Assembly (NCBI GenBank): GCA_013334765.1 | Contig: JAAXWW010000001.1 | Span: forward strand, 172,589 to 236,588 | Reading direction: 5' to 3' | DNA: 64,000 nt | Source: Candidatus Moraniibacteriota bacterium | Lineage (GTDB): Bacteria > Patescibacteriota > Minisyncoccia > Moranbacterales > UBA2206 | In this document: positions 2,405 through 19,110 of the stretch, in pieces | How the letters are laid out: each line of letters opens with the position of its first letter | How positions within the stretch are numbered: position 1 is the stretch's first letter | The notes under the pieces: generated by a model | The model's database searches: none | Seen by the model: the letters and a program-made list of their open reading frames with translations, nothing else | Told to the model about the DNA's origin: nothing | Made by a program: the position numbers and the translations under genes

Positions 2405-3259
2405 ATGTTAATCGACACGCATGCGCATCTGAATTTCGGGGCGTTCAGGGAGGACGCGGATGAAGTCATCAAGAGGTCGCTTGACGCGGGGATGATGATC
2501 GTCAACGTCGGGTCGCAATATTCCACTTCGGCGCGCGCCGTCAAATATGCCAAGAAATATCCGGGCAAGCTCTTTGCGGCAGTCGGAACGCACCCGATCC
2601 ATCTTCACGCGGGGAATTTCAGCTACAAGGATCAGGACGACGAGCTTCTTATTGAGGAAATAGCGACGATCGGTGAGGATGTCGATTTCGAGAAATATCG
2701 CGAGCTGGCTTTGGAAAAGGAAGTGGTGGCAATCGGGGAGATCGGGCTGGATTATCATCATTTCAATGAGGGCGATGACAGGGAAAGGATGAAGGCAAGG
2801 CAGAAGGAGGTTTTCCTGGGATTCATCAATCTGGCAAACGTTGTCGGCAAGCCAGTCATGATCCATTGCTGGGACGCATATGAGGACCTCCTGGAAATCC
2901 TGGAAAGCAACCCAGTCAAGAAGGCAGGGATCATCCATAGCTTTATCGGAGGGTATAGGACTGCCAAGAGATTCATCGAACTGGGGTATAAAATCGGGCT
3001 TAACGGCATCGTGACCTATGGCATAAGCTATGACCGGCTCATCAAAGAAACGGATTTGAGCGATATCGTCCTGGAAACGGATTGCCCATATCTGGCTCCG
3101 GGACCCAAGAAAGGTGAGAGGAACGAGCCTCTCTACACGGCCTATGTCGCTGAGAAAATCGCTGAAATAAAGAATATGACTGAGAAAGAGGTTGCTGAAA
3201 TAACAAGCCGAAATGCTCGAGAAATGCTTGAAATGGAGACAAATTGCAATTCAAACTAG
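2405..3259 (+). CDS. tatD: TatD-family metal-dependent hydrolase/DNase
   Basis: N-terminal 'LIDTHAHLNF' and 'GEIGLDYHH' TatD signatures. 284 aa. Confidence 0.85.
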   Translation: MLIDTHAHLNFGAFREDADEVIKRSLDAGMMIVNVGSQYSTSARAVKYAKKYPGKLFAAVGTHPIHLHAGNFSYKDQDDELLIEEIATIGEDVDFEKYRELALEKEVVAIGEIGLDYHHFNEGDDRERMKARQKEVFLGFINLANVVGKPVMIHCWDAYEDLLEILESNPVKKAGIIHSFIGGYRTAKRFIELGYKIGLNGIVTYGISYDRLIKETDLSDIVLETDCPYLAPGPKKGERNEPLYTAYVAEKIAEIKNMTEKEVAEITSRNAREMLEMETNCNSN

Positions 3260-3286: not shown

Positions 3287-4261
3287 TGTGACAGATACAT
3301 ATTGAACACTATGAATATGATTCGAATTTTTCCATCGGCGTCATCAGATTCAATGATAAGTGCGGCCTTTTGAAATTGTATTCCTGCAGGAATATCTGGA
3401 ACTGGCTATTGAGGTCATGCAGGTCCTTAGCCGGCCTGTATCGCCAAAAGAAGAATTCTTCCTCATCGGTCCGGAATGATCTTTCGATGACCGCGTTCTC
3501 GTTGGGAGTCCGCTTGTGGATGAAGTGGTGCTTGATCTTCGAGCTTTCCAAAAAATTATCGAATGCTGATTGGAATTCCGCCCCGTTGTCGGTCTGGATG
3601 AAATGCACGCCAAAAGGCAGCGTGGGCAGCAGCACCTTCAGGGCGGCTACCGATGAATGGGCATCCAGGTAGGGAACGATCACGGCCTGCTTGTAACGCG
3701 AATATATGTCGATCACGGCGTATTCGAAGCAGGTATGCGGCAAGCCTGAGAGTTCGGGAGTGATGTATTTGACGTCCATCTGCAAATATCCCGGACGTTC
3801 TGCATTCCTAGTATGCATATGGGTGGTGGGTTGTAATTTAGGTCGGCGGTATTGCGTTTGCTTGGGGATCAATCTGCGCTTGTCCAGAAAACGATGGACG
3901 GTCCGGCGATGATAGTCCAAGCCCAGGATGTATCTCAGTTTGATCGCTCCGTAATTCGTTTCCTTTCTGGCGATAGTAATCTGATCCTGATGCGCTGAAA
4001 CAATCGTTGTTTCTCTGACAGTCTTCGGACGGGTTGATTTCCTTTCCAGGTTTGCTGAGCTCAAAGCCAGGTTCGAATGGATGCTCCTGGCTCGCTTTTT
4101 CCAAAAAATCACCGTGCCCGGGCTGATGCCGAGCATTCTAGCCGTTGCCCTGATTCTACCCTGATTCTTCTTCAATGTTAAGATGATTTCCCTTGGCTTT
4201 TTGCGCATATTGTTGCTTTCACTGCTATTGTAGCGGAAAGTGTTCAATATGTTGTGTCACA
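3287..4261 (-). mobile_element. IS481-family insertion sequence (compact, ~975 bp)
   Basis: Imperfect 24-bp terminal inverted repeats: TGTGACAGATACATATTGAACACT at 3287-3310 and AGTGTTCAATATGTTGTGTCACA at 4239-4261 (outer ends TGTGACA). They enclose a single DDE transposase ORF. No clear target-site duplication. Confidence 0.6.
3309..4208 (-). CDS. IS481-family DDE transposase (HTH + rve integrase core)
   Basis: N-terminal HTH ('ATARMLGISPGTVIFW') followed by a retroviral-type integrase core ('HFIQTDNGAEF…HKRTPNENAVIER'). Start taken at ATG 4208; an alternative TTG start lies at 4247 inside the right inverted repeat. Confidence 0.8.
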   Translation of the reverse strand: MRKKPREIILTLKKNQGRIRATARMLGISPGTVIFWKKRARSIHSNLALSSANLERKSTRPKTVRETTIVSAHQDQITIARKETNYGAIKLRYILGLDYHRRTVHRFLDKRRLIPKQTQYRRPKLQPTTHMHTRNAERPGYLQMDVKYITPELSGLPHTCFEYAVIDIYSRYKQAVIVPYLDAHSSVAALKVLLPTLPFGVHFIQTDNGAEFQSAFDNFLESSKIKHHFIHKRTPNENAVIERSFRTDEEEFFFWRYRPAKDLHDLNSQFQIFLQEYNFKRPHLSLNLMTPMEKFESYS

Positions 4262-4409: not shown

Positions 4410-5132
4410 ATGAAAGATGCAACCTTGAAACAGGCAGGAAAAGTATTGACGCTCATGGAAAACACCCCGTGCGAGCAGTTGCAGGAACTTTTGGGATCGG
4501 GACTGCTTTCTGATTTGCTGAGCTGCGATACGAAGCGCATTAGCCGTGACGAATTCAGGAAAATGTGCGGACTCAAGCCTCTCGTCCCCGAACCAGTGGT
4601 ACGCCTTTGGCAAGAACGGGATGGCGTGATTCGCTTCACGCTTCCGCCCACCGACGGAACGACCGGACCGCAGTGGATTGATCGCCTCGAAGGAAAAGGC
4701 TTCAGGCTTTCGAAGTGGGCAAAAGATGTCCTCAATTCGGAGGACTTCAAGCCGACGAGCGGTGTGATCTGCGAGATCGCGGTGCTCAAGGGGATGCTCT
4801 GGAATGACAACAAGCGCATAATCAAGAACATCCGCGCAGATGCCGACAATCGCAAACTGACCAAACCGAGCGCCGAGGTCGCCTGCATGATCCGCGAGAT
4901 GTTCTCGGATGATGAGATCGAAGCCATGGGTCTTTTCTTTGTTGTCACAATGCATGAACCCATCATCGATTCCGATGGTGGTCCGGATCTTCTCTATGCG
5001 CGCCGTGACGGTGGCGGTCGTTGGATGCACACGGCGTGTGTCGGGCCTGACTATGAGTGGCGTTGCGGCTATGGTTTTGCCTTCGTCGCCTCGCAAGTTG
5101 TCAGTGCTCAGGACTCGGCCACTCAGAGCTAG
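4410..5132 (+). CDS. DGR target (variable) protein with C-terminal C-type-lectin/FGE-like fold carrying the VR
   Basis: 240 aa and GC-rich relative to its surroundings. The C-terminal 'RRDGGGRWMHTACVGPDYEWRCGYGFAFVAS' resembles CLec/FGE-fold DGR targets. The last ~130 bp are near-identically repeated downstream (TR). Confidence 0.7.
   Translation: MKDATLKQAGKVLTLMENTPCEQLQELLGSGLLSDLLSCDTKRISRDEFRKMCGLKPLVPEPVVRLWQERDGVIRFTLPPTDGTTGPQWIDRLEGKGFRLSKWAKDVLNSEDFKPTSGVICEIAVLKGMLWNDNKRIIKNIRADADNRKLTKPSAEVACMIREMFSDDEIEAMGLFFVVTMHEPIIDSDGGPDLLYARRDGGGRWMHTACVGPDYEWRCGYGFAFVASQVVSAQDSATQS
4967..5096 (+). repeat. DGR variable repeat (VR)
   Basis: 130-bp near-identical copy of 5428-5557. Differs at 9 positions: 8 correspond to adenines in the other copy (A->G, T or C) and 1 is C->T. 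Confidence 0.8.
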
Positions 5133-5427: not shown

Positions 5428-5557
5428 CAATTCCGATGGTGGTCCGGATCTTCTCTATGCGCGCCGTGACGGTGGCGGTCGTTGGATGCACACGGCGTGT
5501 GTCAGGCCTGACAATGAGTGGAATCGCGACAATGGTTTTGCCTTCGTCGCCTCGAAA
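5428..5557 (+). repeat. DGR template repeat (TR)
   Basis: Invariant template copy. It carries AAT/AAC codons (N) at the positions that differ in VR (N->Y, N->R, D->G, R->G). Confidence 0.8.
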
Positions 5558-9597: not shown

Positions 9598-11106
9598 ATG
9601 AACAAAGACTACATCATCGAACAACTGAAGAGCCAGATCAAAGGTTTCGAATCCGAGACTAAGACCGAGAAGGTCGGGACTGTCATGGAAATCGGGGATG
9701 GGGTCGCCCGCTTGAGCGGACTGACTGATGTCATGGCGAGCGAAATGCTCGAATTCCCGAACGGGGAATTCGGAGTGGCTCTCAATCTTGAGGAAGAGAG
9801 AGTAGGAGCCATGGTGCTCGGCGGATATGACGGCATCAAGGAAGGCGACCAGGTGAAATCGACCGGGAAGATCCTTTCGGTTCCGGTTTCTGACAATTTC
9901 ATCGGCCGCGTGATAAATCCGCTCGGCCTTCCGATCGACGGCAAAGGAGATATTAAGGCGGATGAATCCTATCCGATTGAGAAAATCGCCCCGGGTGTCA
10001 TTACCAGGAAATCGGTTCATCAGCCAGTGCAGACCGGAATAAAGGCCATCGATGCCATGATACCGGTCGGGCGCGGACAGCGCGAGCTTATCATCGGCGA
10101 CAGGCAGACCGGAAAGACGGCGATCGCTATCGACACTATCCTGAACCAGAAAGGCCAGGACATGATCTGCATCTATGTGGCTATCGGACAGAAGGAATCG
10201 AAGGTGGCGAGAATCGTCGGAGAGCTCACTGAACGCGGCGCTATGGACTATACGACGGTTGTCGTGGCTGGAGCATCTGATCCGGCTGCTCTCTCGTATA
10301 TCGCCCCGTATGCAGGCTGCGCGCTGGGCGAATATTTCATGGATAAAGGGAAAGATGTCCTCATCGTTTATGATGATCTTTCCCGCCATGCTTGGGCATA
10401 CCGTCAGATATCCCTCATCCTTCGCCGCCCGCCAGGACGCGAAGCTTATCCGGGAGATGTTTTCTATGTCCACTCGAGGCTTCTGGAAAGAAGCGCCAAA
10501 CTCAATGAGAAATTCGGAGGCGGATCCATCACGGCTCTTCCGATCATCGAAACCCAGGCTGGAGACGTTTCGGCATATATCCCGACCAATGTCATTTCGA
10601 TCACTGACGGACAGATATATCTGGAAGCGGATCTTTTCTATAAAGGAATCCGTCCGGCTCTCAATGTCGGAATCTCGGTTTCCCGCGTGGGATCTTCCGC
10701 TCAGATCAAGGCTATGAAGAAAGTGGCTGGAAAGCTGCGTCTCGACATCGCTCAGTTCCGCGAACTCGAGGCTTTTGCCCAGTTCGGATCCGATCTTGAT
10801 GAAGCGACCAAACAGAAAATCGAAAGAGGAAAAAGAACAGTTGAAATATTGAAACAGGGACAATACGAACCGATGGCAGTCGAGAATCAGGTGGCGATAT
10901 TATATGCCGTTACGAACGGGTTCACGGATGACGTCGAGGTTTCGAAAGTGAGGGATTGGGAGAAGGATTTCCATAAATACCTGAAGAGTTCCAAGAAAGA
11001 AGTCCTAGAACTTATCGCTTCCAAGAAAGAGCTGAGCGAAGACGTGATTGCGGCTCTCGAAGGAGCGATAAAGGAATTCAAAGAAGTTTATCAGAGCGGA
11101 AAATAA
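9598..11106 (+). CDS. atpA: F0F1 ATP synthase subunit alpha
   Basis: Walker A '[11 protein letters not shown]' and conserved alpha-subunit blocks. Confidence 0.95.
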
Positions 11107-11116
11107 AACATAATTT

Positions 11117-12079
11117 ATGGCTAGCTCAACGCGAGACATCAGAAGAAGGATAAAATCCATCAATAACACGAGGAAGATCACCCGTGCGATGGAGATGGTT
11201 TCGGCTGCCAAAATGAGGCGGGCCGTTGCCAGCGTGCTGGGGATCCGTCCCTATGCGCACAGCGCCTGGAGCGTGCTTACTAACCTAGCGAGGGCTTTCC
11301 GCGAGGAATACGGCAAGGGACTCCTTGCGGTGCGCGAGGTGAAGAGCGTCCTTGTCATCGTCATCACATCCAATCGCGGGCTTTGCGGTTCCTTCAATGC
11401 GCAGATAATGAAGAAGGTCCGGGATGAAATCAATAATCCCAAGAGGCTGAAAATAAACCGTGTCGGAGAAAGGAAAATAGAATCCGGCATTTCCGATGCG
11501 GATCTCAATATCGATTTCATAACCATCGGCAAGAAAGGGGAGATGCTCATCAGGAAAATGAGCCGGGAAATCGTAGCGACTTTCCCTGAGCTTACCTATC
11601 TTCCGAAAATAGAGGACGTGCGCGGAGTTTCGAAAATAGTCATCGATGATTATCTATCGAAGAAATATGACAAAGTGGTTATCGCATATACTGACTATGT
11701 TTCAGCGATCGTCCAGGAACCGAAAATCCGTCAGCTGCTTCCGATTTCGAAAATAGATCTGGAAAAACAGATTGCTGAAATGGACTCCCATGCCAAGGAA
11801 TTCGGGCTGAAGCAGCCGAAGACCGAATACAAAGTTGAGCCTGATCCGGTGACGGTTCTCGATCATATCTTCCCGCGCCTTATCGAAATGCAGATATATC
11901 ACGCGATCCTGGAATCCAACGCTTCCAAGGAATCGGCGACGATGGTGGCGATGAGGAACGCGACGGATGCGGCCGGAGAGATGTCAGACAGTCTCACGCT
12001 TGCCTATAACCAGATCCGCCAGATGAAGATCACCCAGGAAATAGCAGAAATTTCAGCAGGCCGGGCAGCATTGGAATAG
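11117..12079 (+). CDS. atpG: F0F1 ATP synthase subunit gamma
   Basis: N-terminal 'IRRRIKSINNTRKITRAMEMVSAAKMRRA' and C-terminal 'MVAMRNATDAAGEM…LAYNQIRQMKITQEI'. Confidence 0.9.
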   Translation: MASSTRDIRRRIKSINNTRKITRAMEMVSAAKMRRAVASVLGIRPYAHSAWSVLTNLARAFREEYGKGLLAVREVKSVLVIVITSNRGLCGSFNAQIMKKVRDEINNPKRLKINRVGERKIESGISDADLNIDFITIGKKGEMLIRKMSREIVATFPELTYLPKIEDVRGVSKIVIDDYLSKKYDKVVIAYTDYVSAIVQEPKIRQLLPISKIDLEKQIAEMDSHAKEFGLKQPKTEYKVEPDPVTVLDHIFPRLIEMQIYHAILESNASKESATMVAMRNATDAAGEMSDSLTLAYNQIRQMKITQEIAEISAGRAALE

Positions 12080-14915: not shown

Positions 14916-15362
14916 ATGAAGATAAAATTCAACTACAAGGGAGTGCATCATTGCGAAGCGGTCGTCCTGAGCTGCATCGATTTCCGTTTTTGGCGTGAAA
15001 GCGTCGAGTTCATAGAAAAAGGGTTGGGAATCAGGTCTTTCGATTTCCCATCGGTTCCCGGATCGGCTAAGGCAGTAAATGAATCTTATTCCATAGAAGA
15101 GACGGTAAAAAGCTGCATAAGCGTTCCGATGGAACTTCATAATGCCAAGAAGATAGTTATCATAAACCACGAGGATTGCGGAGCTTATGGCGGATCGAAG
15201 GAGTTCGGCGGCGATAGCGCAAAGGAGCAGTCTTTCCACGAAGAAGAGCTGAGAACCGCCAAGAGAAACATCCTGGAGCATTTTCCGGACAAGGAAGTGA
15301 TCCTGGTTTATGCCCGGTTTGCCGATGACGGCGAAGCGGTCGAATTTTTGACGATTGAATGA
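14916..15362 (+). CDS. beta-class carbonic anhydrase-like protein (minimal), tentative
   Basis: C-x-D-x-R ('SCIDFR') and H-x-x-C-G ('HEDCGAYGG') motifs, ~56 aa apart as in beta-CAs. Only 148 aa. Confidence 0.4.
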   Translation: MKIKFNYKGVHHCEAVVLSCIDFRFWRESVEFIEKGLGIRSFDFPSVPGSAKAVNESYSIEETVKSCISVPMELHNAKKIVIINHEDCGAYGGSKEFGGDSAKEQSFHEEELRTAKRNILEHFPDKEVILVYARFADDGEAVEFLTIE

Positions 15363-15421
15363 GTTTTGGCAATAGGGTCATATCGCAGTTTCTTTACAAT
15401 TTAAAAAAGGGAAGGTTGAAG

Positions 15422-16057
15422 ATGCCTCATTTCGACGATTGTTTCGGCAATCCGATTATAGATCAGGATGCTTTTGTCAGCAGCCAAGCAACGATTATCG
15501 GGAAGATTATCATAGAGAAAGATGTTATTGTCGCTCCTAACGTCTCTCTGCGAGCAGATGAAGGCAGTCCGTTCATAATACGTAAAGGTACGAATATTCA
15601 GGACGGTGTCGTGTTTCACGGATTGTTGGGAAAATATGTGAGATGTGAAGGAGAAGACTATTCTATTCATATTGGGTCGCACTGCTCGATTGCTCATGGA
15701 GCCATAGTCCATGGTCCGTCGTCGGTGGGAAAAAAGACATTCATTGGTTTCAGAGCGATTGTGCACAACTCGAGTGTTGGCAAACATTGCTTTATCGATA
15801 TGCAAGCCACGGTCAAAGGTTCATTGGTTGGAGATTTCTGTCATATTGGGACAGGAGCCAGACTGATAGGGGTCAACGTTCCTTGCAACAGATACATAGA
15901 GGATGGGCTTATAGTCAACAAGCAAGAGATGGTGAAAACCTTGCCTTGCATAAGCGAAGAACAGCTGCTTCTTGATTATGAATTCAACAAAGAAGTGGTT
16001 GATTATAACAAAATTCTCGTCGGAAGATATCGTGAAAGGCGTAAATCTATGCTATAA
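15422..16057 (+). CDS. gamma-class carbonic anhydrase-like / left-handed beta-helix (hexapeptide repeat) protein
   Basis: Hexapeptide-repeat fold with gamma-CA-like His triad spacing ('VFHGLLG…SIAHGAIVHG'). Start moved to ATG 15422 (MPHFDD), which has a GGAAGG RBS. Confidence 0.55.
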   Translation: MPHFDDCFGNPIIDQDAFVSSQATIIGKIIIEKDVIVAPNVSLRADEGSPFIIRKGTNIQDGVVFHGLLGKYVRCEGEDYSIHIGSHCSIAHGAIVHGPSSVGKKTFIGFRAIVHNSSVGKHCFIDMQATVKGSLVGDFCHIGTGARLIGVNVPCNRYIEDGLIVNKQEMVKTLPCISEEQLLLDYEFNKEVVDYNKILVGRYRERRKSML

Positions 16058-16076
16058 AACGAAGCTAACTTATAGG

Positions 16077-16110
16077 CAGTGCTCCACATGTGGAGCACTG
16101 CCTTTTTTCT
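16077..16110 (+). terminator. Rho-independent terminator
   Basis: Perfect hairpin GGCAGTGCTCCACA/TGTGGAGCACTGCC followed by TTTTTTC. Confidence 0.65.
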
Positions 16111-16151
16111 TGAAAAAAACCAGGAAATAGGCTACAGTTAAATGGAAACAT

Positions 16152-16235
16152 ATGGAAAAATACAATCCTAGCGAAATTGAGCCTAAATGGCCCGCCTTCG
16201 TCCCGCTTAGCGGGACTTCGGTGGGCAAAGCATAA
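16152..16235 (+). CDS. 27-codon upstream ORF duplicating the LeuS N-terminus (leader peptide?)
   Basis: Encodes MEKYNPSEIEPKWPAFVPLSGTSVGKA. The first 13 codons are a diverged copy (31/39 nt) of the leuS start (MEKYEPSKIEPKW). It stops 4 nt before the leuS ATG, in a different frame. Contains a CCCGCTTAGCGGG hairpin. Confidence 0.3.
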   Translation: MEKYNPSEIEPKWPAFVPLSGTSVGKA

Positions 16236-16239
16236 ATAT

Positions 16240-19110
16240 ATGGAAAAATACGAGCCTTCTAAAATCGAGCCGAAATGGCAGAAATGTTGGGAAGAACATC
16301 CGGAGCTTTCGGCTGCCGATGATGCCGTGAATAAGCCGAAATATTATTGTTTGGACATGTTCCCGTATCCTTCTGGCGATGGCTTGCATGTGGGCCATGT
16401 GGAAAGCTATACGGCGACTGATATCGTTTCGCGTTTCAAGCGAATGAACGGAAAAAATGTGCTTCATCCGCAAGGTTGGGACGCGTTCGGCCTGCCTGCT
16501 GAGAACTATGCGATCAAGACCGGAACCCATCCGGATCTGAGGACGCATCAGAATATTGCGAATTTCACAAGACAGATAAAATCCCTTGGCATGTCATATG
16601 ACTGGTCGCGGGAAATCGATACATCAAACCCTGAATATTACAAATGGACGCAATGGCTGTTTCTGCTGTTCTATAAGAACGGATTGGCATACAAGAAAAT
16701 GGGGAAGGTCAATTGGTGCCCTTCCTGCCAAACAGTGCTTGCTAACGAACAGGTTGAAGATGGAATCTGCGAGAGATGCAAGAATGAAGTGATTCAGAAA
16801 GATCTCGAGCAATGGTATTTCAAGATCACGGATTTCATCGAGAACAACAAAGAAACGACAGGCCTCATTGAAGGCTTGGGGAAAGTCGATTGGCCCGGTT
16901 CAACAATAGCGGCGCAAAAGAATTGGATCGGCAAAAGCGAAGGAGTCGAATTCAAATTCAAGGTCAAGAATTCAGATTCCGAAATCAGTGTTTATACTAC
17001 GCGTATAGACACGGTTTTCGGTGTGACATACGTAGTTGTCGGTCCGGAACACAGGATCATCAAAGGGCTCAAAGACAAGATTTCAAACATAGAAGAAGTC
17101 GAGACATATGTGGCAGAAACGAAAAAGAAAACGGATCTTGAAAGAATGGAGGCGAAGGTGAAGACTGGCGTTGAATTGAGAGGAATAAAAGTCATCAACC
17201 CGTTCAGCGGCCAGGAAGTGCCTCTCTTCGTTGCGGATTATGTCTTGAGTCAATATGGAACCGGAGCGGTTATGGCAGTTCCGGCGCATGACGAAAGGGA
17301 TTTCGAGTTTGCGAAGAAATATGATTTGCCGATAAAGAGGGTGATAGAACCTAAATTTATTGCTGGCCCAGGAAGCGATTCTGCGATAATGCCTGGTCAG
17401 GAATATATAAAGCGCAGTGCTATTGCCGCAGTTATTAGAAATCCCAAAGATGACACGTATTTATGTATCAGCTGGAAAACTGCTCATATGCATGGAATAG
17501 TTACTGGCGGTGTTGATGAAGGCGAAGATATCGTCGAAGCTGCGCGGCGTGAAGTGCTTGAAGAGACTGGATACAAAAATTTGAAATTGGTAAAAATTTC
17601 AGACAAAGCAATTCATAGTCTTTTTTATCACCGTGTAAAGAAACAGAATCGCTGGGCACGTTTCCAATATGTAATTTTTGATTTGATTGACGAGCAACAA
17701 GAAGCTATAGATGAAAAAGAAGCGGCTCTGCATGAAATTATTTGGAAGAAAAAAGAAGAGCTTAGGGACTTTTTTAGTGTTATTGAAGGAACTTACATAA
17801 TGAATCTTCTTGATAATATTGATAGTGCTTTTACGGATGATGGTGTTGTGTATAATTCCGGAGAATATGACTGGATGGATTCTTCCGAGGCTCGCAAAAA
17901 GATGGCCCAGTGGCTGGAAAAAGAGGGGATCGGTAAGAAGAAGATAAATTACAAGCTGCGCGATTGGCTGGTTTCGAGGCAAAGATATTGGGGCGCTCCG
18001 ATTCCGATCATATATTGCGACAAGTGCGGAGCGGTTCCGGTTCCGGAGAAGGACTTGCCGGTGATGCTTCCGACAGATGTGGATTTCAAGCCGATTGGAG
18101 AATCTCCATTGGCATATTCGAAAACTTTCCATGATGTGGTTTGCCCGAAATGCGGAGGGAAAGCCAGGAGAGAATCGGACACGATGGATACATTCGTCTG
18201 CTCATCTTGGTATTATTTCAGATATTCCGATCCGAAAAACAGAGAAGAGTTCGCATCAAAAGAGAATATAAAGAAATGGCTGCCGGTTGATCTATACGTC
18301 GGAGGAGCGGAGCATAGCGTGCTCCATCTTCTGTATGCCAGGTTTTTCACGAAAGCATTGCACAATCTCGGATACGTCGGCTTTGATGAGCCGTTCTTGA
18401 AATTGCGCCATCAGGGAATGATTCTGGCGGAAGACGGACGCAAGATGTCGAAGTCGCTCGGGAATGTCATAAATCCGGATGTCGTCGTGAAGGAATTCGG
18501 GGCTGACTCGCTGCGCATATTCGAGATGTTCATGGGTCCATTTGATGCGATGAAACCGTGGAATACGAAAGGAATAGTCGGGATGCAGAGGTTTTTGGAT
18601 AAAGTATGGAGATTTAGCGAAACAGTTTCCGATAGCAATGAGCCGGACGTGAAGATCCAATCATTGCTTCACAAAACAATCAAGAAAGTCACCGCTGACA
18701 TTGAAGATTTCCATTTCAATACTGCTGTATCGCAGCTCATGATCCTGGCTAATGCAATGGAAAAGGAAACGGTAATTTTCAAGGATGAATACGGAAAATT
18801 CCTCATTCTCCTTTCTCCCTTCGCTCCGCATATCGCGGAAGAGCTGTGGTCCAGAATCGGAAATGACAAATCTATTTTCCTGGAGTCCTGGCCGGAATAC
18901 GACGCGGAATTGGCCAAGGATGAAGAGGCTGAAGTCGTGATCCAGGTCAACGGGAAAGTGCGCGATAAGATGACCGTCAGCGCGGATATGGATGAAGAGG
19001 AAATGAAAGCTCTCGCTATCGCAAGTGAAAAAGTACAAGCTCATATATCAGGAAAGGAAATCAGGAAAATCATCGTTGTCAAAGGCAGGCTCGTCAGCAT
19101 AGTGGTCTAG
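16240..19110 (+). CDS. leuS: leucyl-tRNA synthetase carrying an internal Nudix-hydrolase domain insertion
   Basis: 'HVGHVESYTATD' HIGH motif, CP1 editing domain ('TTRIDTVFGVTY', 'GTGAVMAVPAHDERDFEFAKKY'), 'KMSKSLGN' and 'NYKLRDWLVSRQRYWGAPIP'. An extra ~160 aa at ~17350-17840 carries a canonical Nudix box 'GGVDEGEDIVEAARREVLEETGY'. Confidence 0.95.
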   Translation: MEKYEPSKIEPKWQKCWEEHPELSAADDAVNKPKYYCLDMFPYPSGDGLHVGHVESYTATDIVSRFKRMNGKNVLHPQGWDAFGLPAENYAIKTGTHPDLRTHQNIANFTRQIKSLGMSYDWSREIDTSNPEYYKWTQWLFLLFYKNGLAYKKMGKVNWCPSCQTVLANEQVEDGICERCKNEVIQKDLEQWYFKITDFIENNKETTGLIEGLGKVDWPGSTIAAQKNWIGKSEGVEFKFKVKNSDSEISVYTTRIDTVFGVTYVVVGPEHRIIKGLKDKISNIEEVETYVAETKKKTDLERMEAKVKTGVELRGIKVINPFSGQEVPLFVADYVLSQYGTGAVMAVPAHDERDFEFAKKYDLPIKRVIEPKFIAGPGSDSAIMPGQEYIKRSAIAAVIRNPKDDTYLCISWKTAHMHGIVTGGVDEGEDIVEAARREVLEETGYKNLKLVKISDKAIHSLFYHRVKKQNRWARFQYVIFDLIDEQQEAIDEKEAALHEIIWKKKEELRDFFSVIEGTYIMNLLDNIDSAFTDDGVVYNSGEYDWMDSSEARKKMAQWLEKEGIGKKKINYKLRDWLVSRQRYWGAPIPIIYCDKCGAVPVPEKDLPVMLPTDVDFKPIGESPLAYSKTFHDVVCPKCGGKARRESDTMDTFVCSSWYYFRYSDPKNREEFASKENIKKWLPVDLYVGGAEHSVLHLLYARFFTKALHNLGYVGFDEPFLKLRHQGMILAEDGRKMSKSLGNVINPDVVVKEFGADSLRIFEMFMGPFDAMKPWNTKGIVGMQRFLDKVWRFSETVSDSNEPDVKIQSLLHKTIKKVTADIEDFHFNTAVSQLMILANAMEKETVIFKDEYGKFLILLSPFAPHIAEELWSRIGNDKSIFLESWPEYDAELAKDEEAEVVIQVNGKVRDKMTVSADMDEEEMKALAIASEKVQAHISGKEIRKIIVVKGRLVSIVV

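Follow-up and report, generated by a model that had tools for sequence, protein, structure and literature searches.

The Rickettsia palindromic elements (RPEs), reportedly described by Ogata et al. in 2000, are dispersed hairpin-forming repeats of roughly 100-150 nt that are tolerated in-frame in Rickettsia genes. We know of no RPE insertion that is accompanied by a duplicated gene start. Here we describe a hairpin repeat that does stand beside a duplicated gene start, at the 5' end of leuS (encoding leucyl-tRNA synthetase) in a 64,000-nt stretch of patescibacterial DNA on contig JAAXWW010000001.1, called the window below. An upstream open reading frame (uORF) re-encodes the N terminus of LeuS, runs through a GC-rich hairpin, and ends just before the gene itself. 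Comparison of the sequence with those of its relatives makes it highly probable that this uORF is a scar, left when a former leuS start was displaced by a recombined hairpin repeat together with a foreign replacement start.

By analogy, RPEs appear to be the nearest known parallel to the repeat family found at this locus, which we call type A. In both cases a short, dispersed hairpin repeat lies in-frame in protein genes of a bacterium with a reduced genome, and in type A compensatory changes keep the stem. The likeness drawn here is one of description, however: type A is much shorter (~30-40 nt), is GC-rich, and occurs in Patescibacteria; no terminal target duplication has been identified for it; and ~23 of its ~25 copies lie in or at leuS, in a sample that was centred on leuS loci.

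Displaced gene ends, familiar as the orphan toxin tips of Rhs and CDI systems, offer another comparison. Homology-facilitated illegitimate recombination, as outlined in PMC3240628, uses homology at one end and joins the other without it, and the displaced type VI secretion system effector modules of Vibrio cholerae, as outlined in PMC5361080, illustrate displacement of 3' gene ends that leaves fossils. The leuS locus resembles such events in that incoming DNA would have been anchored in a conserved part of the gene, the other end would have joined with no or very short homology, and the resident end was apparently left as a fossil beside the new one. It differs in that a 5' and not a 3' end is concerned, the fossil comprises only 8-13 codons, no change of function is involved, and a palindromic repeat always begins exactly at the junction, which in many lineages falls at the same codon. 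Some integrative elements, for example those with phage or island att sites at tRNA or tmRNA 3' ends, carry a replacement copy of the end of their target gene. At leuS, too, the target gene would stay intact through an incoming copy of its own, and diverged direct repeats flank the insert, but the insert between the repeats is 42 nt, there is no integrase or cargo, the repeat is a protein N terminus, and downstream codons appear to have been co-converted over ~27, ~38, or ~30-45 codons. With coupled uORFs and leaders the locus shares a short ORF that ends 4 nt before the main start and has a strong hairpin inside it; unlike them, the window uORF is not conserved, has no regulatory codon run and no terminator/antiterminator alternative, and its tail is simply the translation of the repeat element. 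Gene-end displacement scars and RPE-like repeats are both known; what is described here is a variant that recurs at one essential gene in many lineages.

A duplicated leuS start in the window and its relatives

The start of leuS is present twice in the window, with one ATG at 16152 and another at 16240. A repeat finder aligned 46 nt, 16146..16191 (the upstream copy: a 6-nt leader, ATG 16152, codons 1-13 MEKYNPSEIEPKW, and 1 nt) with 16234..16279 (the current leuS start region, codons 1-13 MEKYEPSKIEPKW), both on the + strand. Each copy reaches 6 nt 5' of its ATG and 1 nt beyond TGG, and 37 of 46 positions (80%) are identical. Their spacing of 88 nt places the two copies in different frames. 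Over the 39 nt of the 13 codons, 31 positions match, and the 8 differences change only 2 residues (11 of 13 identical); in simulations, 8 random substitutions gave two or fewer amino-acid changes in only 0.05% of cases. The differences also include an AGC/TCT serine switch, and both copies must therefore have evolved as coding sequence.

From its ATG, the upstream copy opens a uORF of 27 codons (16152..16235, + strand; product MEKYNPSEIEPKWPAFVPLSGTSVGKA*), 13 of them shared with LeuS and 14 running through the hairpin element and spacer, to a TAA stop (16233-16235) that lies 4 nt 5' of the leuS ATG. The tail of its product, PAFVPLSGTSVGKA, is encoded by the palindromic element, and relatives do not share it. 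The hairpin is separated from the current start by an A-rich spacer, AAAGCATAAATAT (16227..16239, + strand), which contains the uORF stop and, in its 13 nt, no Shine-Dalgarno-like motif; comparable spacers (AAGCAGAAACAA, AAACAGAAGAA, AAGCAAGATAA) occur in other type A cases. A first-pass annotation of this DNA had reported the upstream copy, its 31 of 39 matching nucleotides, the two starts, its different frame, and the position of the stop, and had added that the uORF is no classical Leu-codon attenuator; all of this holds, with a single Leu codon among the 27. It had also raised the possibility of a local misassembly. The arrangement at 16146-16279 is supported at the assembly level by the window contig and by a Logan assembly of run SRR11449211 (contig L217), which gives the same 261 nt base for base, so that a misassembly private to the window contig is unlikely. 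Repeat and element scans covered the full 64-kb window, and no second direct repeat of the start-duplication kind was found in it.

For comparison, leuS 5' regions from 80 species-representative genomes were combined with 10 contigs encoding the best N-terminal protein matches, 120 metagenome contigs picked by the clade-specific motif GHVE[SN]YTA[TS]DI, and L217. This set totals ~1.5 Mb and includes six viral contigs, which were left out of the start-duplication scan. LeuS places the window organism in Patescibacteria, near Moranbacteria; no relative above ~83% nucleotide identity was found in the set, and the closest is L200 (Ga0209373_10013764). The layout of the window, namely a promoter, the first 8-13 leuS codons, a GC-rich hairpin from the next base, an A-rich spacer, and a complete leuS start, was found at 10 further distinct loci: L030, L028 (=L112), L090, L170, L152 (=L119), L162, L210, L103, L099, and L212 (=L208). 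With the window this makes 11 distinct leuS loci, three of which were recovered twice from different samples (L028/L112, L152/L119, and L212/L208). They fall into three junction classes, with a type A hairpin after codon 13, a hairpin of a different type (type B) after codon 13, or a type A hairpin after codon 8. The layout was found at no other gene start in the scanned 1.5 Mb, and it is absent from L200 and from the sister loci L085, L086, and L141.

The relatives reveal which copy is the older resident. The leuS start of L200 (ATGGAAAAATACAATCCTAGCGAAATAGAGCCTAAATGG) is identical to the upstream copy of the window (16152-16190) at 38 of 39 nt and encodes the same peptide, but it matches the current start of the window at only 31 of 39; likewise, L200 is the best BLAST match of the 46-nt upstream segment (97.6% over 41 nt). 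The same polarity is seen elsewhere. The upstream copy of L030 matches the real start of L085, which has no insert, at 35 of 39 nt, with promoter and leader nearly base-for-base equal, and the upstream copy of L028 is identical to the real start of L086 (25 of 25 nt). The stranded copy is thus nearer to the working start of the sister than the working copy is, which indicates an outside source for the working copy. Among the options offered in the first-pass annotation, the comparative data support that of an ancestral start which an insertion displaced. The objection raised there, that a near-identical peptide speaks against a relic, is not upheld: both copies served as genuine LeuS N termini, each in its own lineage, which is why the peptide appears conserved. 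Upstream copies also decay: that of L090 has a 1-nt deletion causing a frameshift, those of L028/L112 and L212/L208 are cut after codon 8, and that of L162 has no ATG. The C-terminal tails of the uORFs are unrelated between loci, being translations of whichever hairpin follows, and the uORFs of the relatives contain 0-2 Leu codons.

The foreign character of the current start extends into the gene. The body of window leuS is closest to L200, at 83% over 16331-16700 (next best 77%) and 81% over 16701-17200 (next best 70%), whereas segment 16234-16330 has its best matches in L173, L199, and L215 (75-79%), with L200 at 63-73% and outside the top ten. A sliding comparison places this switch in similarity ~90-150 nt into the gene. 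Since the relic and the body are nearest to L200 and the new 5' segment is not, the 5' segment appears to be foreign and the upstream copy to be the displaced ancestral start. The putative foreign patch would comprise the hairpin, the spacer, and the first ~90-150 nt of leuS (16191..16380, + strand, with an approximate right boundary). In line with this reading, identity between L030 and L085 is ~97% through the relic, falls to ~67% between the new start and codon ~27, and returns to ~90% thereafter, and discordance between patch and body was also seen in L212, L099, L112, and L152. L212 and L141 differ in a ~250-nt block comprising the relic, hairpin, and new start (82% identity in its coding part) but are ~100% identical to either side of it, from which it follows that the whole arrangement was exchanged as a unit through homologous recombination. 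The right-hand boundaries of the patches vary (codon ~27, ~38, or ~30-45), pointing to homologous resolution and not to a fixed element end or site-specific recombination. The left junction in the window lies exactly between TGG and CCCGCC, with at most 1-2 nt shared. Judging from the L212/L141 pair, it could equally have been inherited from a donor cassette, with the donor's own relic as left homology arm.

The palindromic repeat at the junction

The hairpin of the window occupies 16190-16226 and has an outer and an inner stem of 7 bp each, separated by a 3x3 internal loop, with a folding energy of -28.2 kcal/mol (z = -5.2 relative to shuffled sequences). A hairpin had been noted here before, but as a smaller structure than this two-tier one. 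Fold prediction gives it as a single dominant hairpin, with a frequency of 0.94. It forms most of a GC-rich type A element at 16190..16230 (+ strand), (G)CCCGCCTTCG-[TCCCGCTTAGCGGGA]-CTTCGGTGGGC-AAAG, a variant with an extended inner stem, in which G16190 is common to the hairpin and the TGG codon of the relic. The type A consensus is CCCKCCTTCG-(CTAAAG, CCGAGG or longer stem)-CTTCGGnGGGC-AAG. Type A elements follow the relic in the window and in L090, L170, L152, L162, L028, and L212, whereas type B elements (TCCCGC-nnn-GCGGGA-TTTCG..CTCAAC) do so in L030, L210, L103, and L099. L200 and L190 carry type A straight 5' of the start, with no recognisable relic; homologous elements are found at the equivalent position in L200, L090, L170, L152, L162, L028, L212, and L190.

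Across the 1.5 Mb from related loci, BLAST and an nhmmer profile recovered ~25 type A copies (E < 1e-3). Besides the leuS 5' end, they occur at three or four sites within leuS, inside atpD, and at one further location, and many of them stand in-frame in coding sequence. The 64-kb window contains a single copy, to which exact, mismatch, and half-site searches and the nhmmer profile added none; the in-frame insertions were seen in genes of relatives and not in the window. LeuS of L028 reads KITDFVE-PSFTKASEGQG-RKTSGLL, with the same insertion in LeuS of several loci, and AtpD of L209 reads VVDVEF-PASAEASAGKG-ENHLPEIY, an insertion found in two loci. Individual in-frame elements of ~30 nt lie at 2342-2373 in L028, 859-889 and 6386-6416 in L209, 913-943 in L109, 4527-4557 in L122, 4385-4415 in L173, and 3576-3607 in L195; the leuS insertions stand notably after KITDFIE and those of atpD after VVDVEF, and they add PSFAKASEGK-like peptides. 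The stem is maintained by compensatory change: at pair 5-24, 4 sequences have G-C, 10 have T-A, and 3 have G-T or T-G, and in no sequence is this pair broken, while pair 2-28 is C-G in 14 and T-A in 2. At the internal insertions no short duplication is evident, and the junctions share only a loose AARTRG motif immediately before the insert. On this evidence, type A is a family of small palindromic repeats tolerated inside genes. In the literature on palindromic or MITE-like (miniature inverted-repeat transposable element-like) elements in the Candidate Phyla Radiation (Patescibacteria), no description of this family was found. RPEs themselves are reportedly counted as prokaryotic MITEs in a review (PMC10969869).

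Two other identities for the hairpin were rejected. It is not a mimic of the tRNA-Leu acceptor stem (7 bp and the following A), the stems of related loci being GCCGCUG and GCCGAAG and not GCCCKCC. Six matches to the hairpin pattern in the viral contigs come from phage contigs of 58-67% GC, are unrelated to leuS, and were judged to be chance or terminator hairpins.

Origin, spread, and rival explanations

We propose that leuS in the ancestor of the window organism began at 16152, a few bases 3' of the promoter, and that recombination put a foreign segment directly after codon 13 (TGG). This segment would have consisted of a ~40-nt GC-rich palindromic element, an A-rich spacer, and the start and approximately the first 30-45 codons of another leuS allele, its other end being resolved by homologous recombination within leuS. 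The old 13 codons would thereby have been left upstream and out of frame, reading through the hairpin to the first stop in the spacer. Two routes to the recurrent layout can be envisaged. One end may have been joined at the repeat without homology and the other by homologous recombination, which would be homology-facilitated illegitimate recombination in the sense of PMC3240628. Alternatively, a few founding events, corresponding to the three junction classes, may have been followed by spread of the arrangement as an allele between lineages, in which the relic would pair with codons 1-13 of the recipient and the downstream codons would act as the second arm. Spread as an allele is favoured as the account of how the layout was disseminated, because it would explain why the junction is identical in many lineages, why leuS alone is affected, why relics look fresh, why the patch is discordant, and why L212 and L141 differ by a clean block. 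An in-frame intermediate, with the hairpin after W13 and no new start, was not seen: a designed query against 5.8 billion proteins returned, as its 16 best matches, only uninterrupted KWQ N termini.

A more speculative extension of the scar explanation, which we regard as rather doubtful, is that the hairpin, the spacer, and the first ~13-40 leuS codons together form a minimal self-propagating cassette specialised on one essential gene. Such a cassette would enter any leuS allele at a conserved site, between KW and Q (or between KKI and E), and the host would survive since the cassette supplies a replacement start. The old start would stay as a relic and serve as the left homology arm for the next transfer. 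The result would be a selfish allele, free of cargo and enzymes, spreading in Patescibacteria by transformation and recombination, possibly aided by the palindrome.

Several observations sit uneasily with displacement as the explanation of the uORF. In seven of the 11 relics the ATG and 13 open codons persist, the stop of nearly every uORF lies 0-18 nt from the real start or overlaps it, and of the three alleles that have the hairpin alone, two (L200 and P0136) retain an ATG immediately 5' of it. The open relics and the nearby stops could reflect selection for translation through the hairpin, and not youth. The restriction of the layout to leuS, and of almost all copies of the hairpin family to sites in or at leuS, is not fully explained. 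In addition, no donor close to the patch of the window was found in the comparison set (best 77-79%), and the patch is deduced from discordant similarity over ~100-150 nt alone, in the most variable region of the protein.

A first rival is that the uORF is a selected translational-coupling leader, in which ribosomes would load at the relic ATG, melt the hairpin, stop, and reinitiate at leuS. The relic ORF would then be kept for its translation and not for its peptide, a role that may be compatible with a relic origin as a secondary function. Besides the open relics and the retained ATGs of L200 and P0136, coupling would account for a stop 4 nt before the start in the window and L212, an ATGA overlap in L152, stops 10-18 nt before the start in L210, L103, L099, and L030, and the lack of a Shine-Dalgarno-like motif in the spacer. 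Yet L190 has the hairpin, spacer, and ATG with no upstream ATG, so that its start apparently works alone, which argues against strict dependence; the relic of L162 has no ATG; the uORF of L028 stops inside the hairpin loop and that of L090 runs ~30 nt beyond the start; and stops are expected from the A/T-rich composition of the spacer. Nor does the hairpin seem to hide the gene start, as the first-pass annotation had suggested checking: the predicted fold leaves the leuS start essentially unpaired. On balance we consider selected coupling possible but a good deal less probable than a scar. Any coupling would be a by-product of the scar and not what gave rise to it, and the uORF and hairpin most likely now do nothing specific.

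The remaining explanations are much weaker. A conserved peptide that copies the LeuS N terminus and serves in regulation or as a decoy, for example as a nascent-peptide sensor or attenuation leader, would fit the 11 of 13 shared residues and the mostly synonymous differences. It is very unlikely, however, as the uORF is absent from L200, L085, L086, and L141, four lineages have a relic with a frameshift, a truncation, or no start codon, the tails show no conservation, and the uORF has one Leu codon, no T-run after its hairpin, and no relevant Rfam match. The absence of the duplication from close relatives, which the first-pass annotation had named as a refutation, together with the decay of the relics, refutes the leader-peptide and decoy readings. 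A local tandem duplication in this genome, with copies that then diverged and a hairpin gained de novo or secondarily, would explain a direct repeat at 88-nt spacing, and hairpins can promote slippage. It is just as improbable, because relative to the L200 start the non-functional copy has 1 difference and the functional copy 8, including AGC/TCT, which is the opposite of the expectation, and because the unduplicated codons 14 to ~40 are also discordant, as they are in L030 compared with L085. That two strain alleles of the leuS 5' end were stitched in tandem around a palindrome by an assembler deserves the least credence of all, even though the sequence is metagenome derived and palindromes can confuse assemblers: the Logan assembly is identical, the same architecture occurs with different sequences in many projects and assemblers, and three cases were recovered twice from different samples.

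Other mechanisms were considered and rejected. An attenuator of the leu, his, or trp type would have a run of Leu codons and an antiterminator alternative, but there is no such run, no T-run after 16226, and only a single dominant hairpin. A cmscan search of 15000-17500 (E up to 10) for a T-box or other Rfam cis-acting RNA gave chance-level matches only, none of them in 16110-16240. Bypassing of the T4 gene 60 type does not fit, as no stop follows TGG at 16188-16190 and the downstream copy has its own ATG and a complete N terminus, which makes a bypass unnecessary. Nor are the copies a diversity-generating retroelement pair, in view of the fact that the 8 differences involve A, G, C, and T and not adenines alone.

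The leuS gene, its transcription, and remodelling of its 5' end

The leuS gene itself (16240..19110, + strand) encodes a 956-aa protein that carries a NUDIX domain as an insertion at aa 392-508. This insert, at 17413-17763 after the editing domain, has its Nudix box, GGVDEGEDIVEAARREVLEETG, at 17506-17571; L200 LeuS is without the ~450-nt NUDIX insert, and PF00293 is also precomputed on the partial LeuS matches P0003 and P0025. Upstream lies a gene for a hexapeptide-repeat transferase (15359..16057; Pfam Hexapep), ended by an intrinsic-terminator-like hairpin and T-run (16074..16109, + strand; 13-bp stem, TTTTTT tail), so that leuS has its own transcription unit. A terminator scan found only this terminator of the upstream gene (16074-16103). 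A promoter-like site, TTGAAA-17-TACAGT (16110..16138, + strand), is a consensus match only, with a predicted transcript start at ~16145, and a transcript from it would therefore begin only a few nucleotides 5' of the relic ATG. In L030, L085, L033, L035, L036, and L200, leuS is preceded by a similar motif (cTTGAwAAAAAcc...GGCTAnAGT). In the extended form TTTTTTCTTGAwAAAAAcc..gAAATAGGCTAnAgT, it stands directly after the upstream terminator (16104-16140 in the window) in many Moranbacteria-like loci and precedes leuS despite differing upstream genes; judged by its sequence, it looks like a conserved leuS promoter. Elsewhere in the window, a perfectly identical 74-nt direct repeat (4969-5042 and 5430-5503, 461 nt apart), which includes a 7-bp inverted repeat (CGCCGTG...CACGGCG), probably reflects repetition within a coding sequence.

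Sequence comparison across the phylum indicates many kinds of remodelling at the leuS 5' end. In L141, a promoter-like stretch 5' of leuS (~10900-11150, oriented) is tandemly duplicated and accompanied by another palindrome, CCCTCCCTTGTCAGGGAGGG, and the near-identical sister L212 has one copy of that stretch. The leuS leader of L086 (~1275-1335) contains a different, longer GC-rich double palindrome, GTCATTCTCGCGAAAGCGGGAATCCAGAATTCTGGATCCCGCATCAAGTGCGGGATGAC, which the gene caller read into protein as ...VILAKAGIQNSGSRIKCGMT... In L005 (~2880-3000) and L170 (~3300-3385), the leuS promoter region lies between the arms of a 13-bp inverted repeat, CCCCGTTAGAAAT...ATTTCTAACGGGG, the 3' arm of which is read as part of an N-terminal extension (MAISNGAS-KY...); L022 LeuS has a 35-aa N-terminal extension instead. 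LeuS in L139 (~6170), L143, L182 (~7900), and L214 begins only ~10 residues before ILDMFPYPSG and is entirely without the conserved KY.P..IE.KWQ..W segment, which therefore seems dispensable in some lineages. Finally, leuS was called as two adjacent or overlapping ORFs in L081 (1186-3681), L083 (1501-3849), L084 (1501-4011), and L087 (1501-3940), with products of, for example, 420 and 405 aa or 282 and 562 aa. Genuinely split genes, frameshifts where repeats were inserted, or errors in sequencing could account for this.

For the window itself the practical value of these findings is modest: the correct leuS start is 16240, and the uORF is not to be annotated as a gene. For annotation more generally, a peptide-preserving upstream copy of a gene start may be a recombination fossil and not a regulatory leader, and the two can be distinguished by whether the closest relatives carry the duplication and by which copy equals their real start. 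Patescibacteria carry a palindromic repeat family of ~30 nt that is tolerated in-frame in essential genes, and their leuS 5' end is a recurrent recombination mosaic that shows gene flow between lineages 20-40% apart in sequence. If the layout did prove to be a self-propagating cassette, it would be a new and extremely small kind of selfish allele, intermediate in concept between RPEs, homing elements, and those integrative elements that restore the gene they target.

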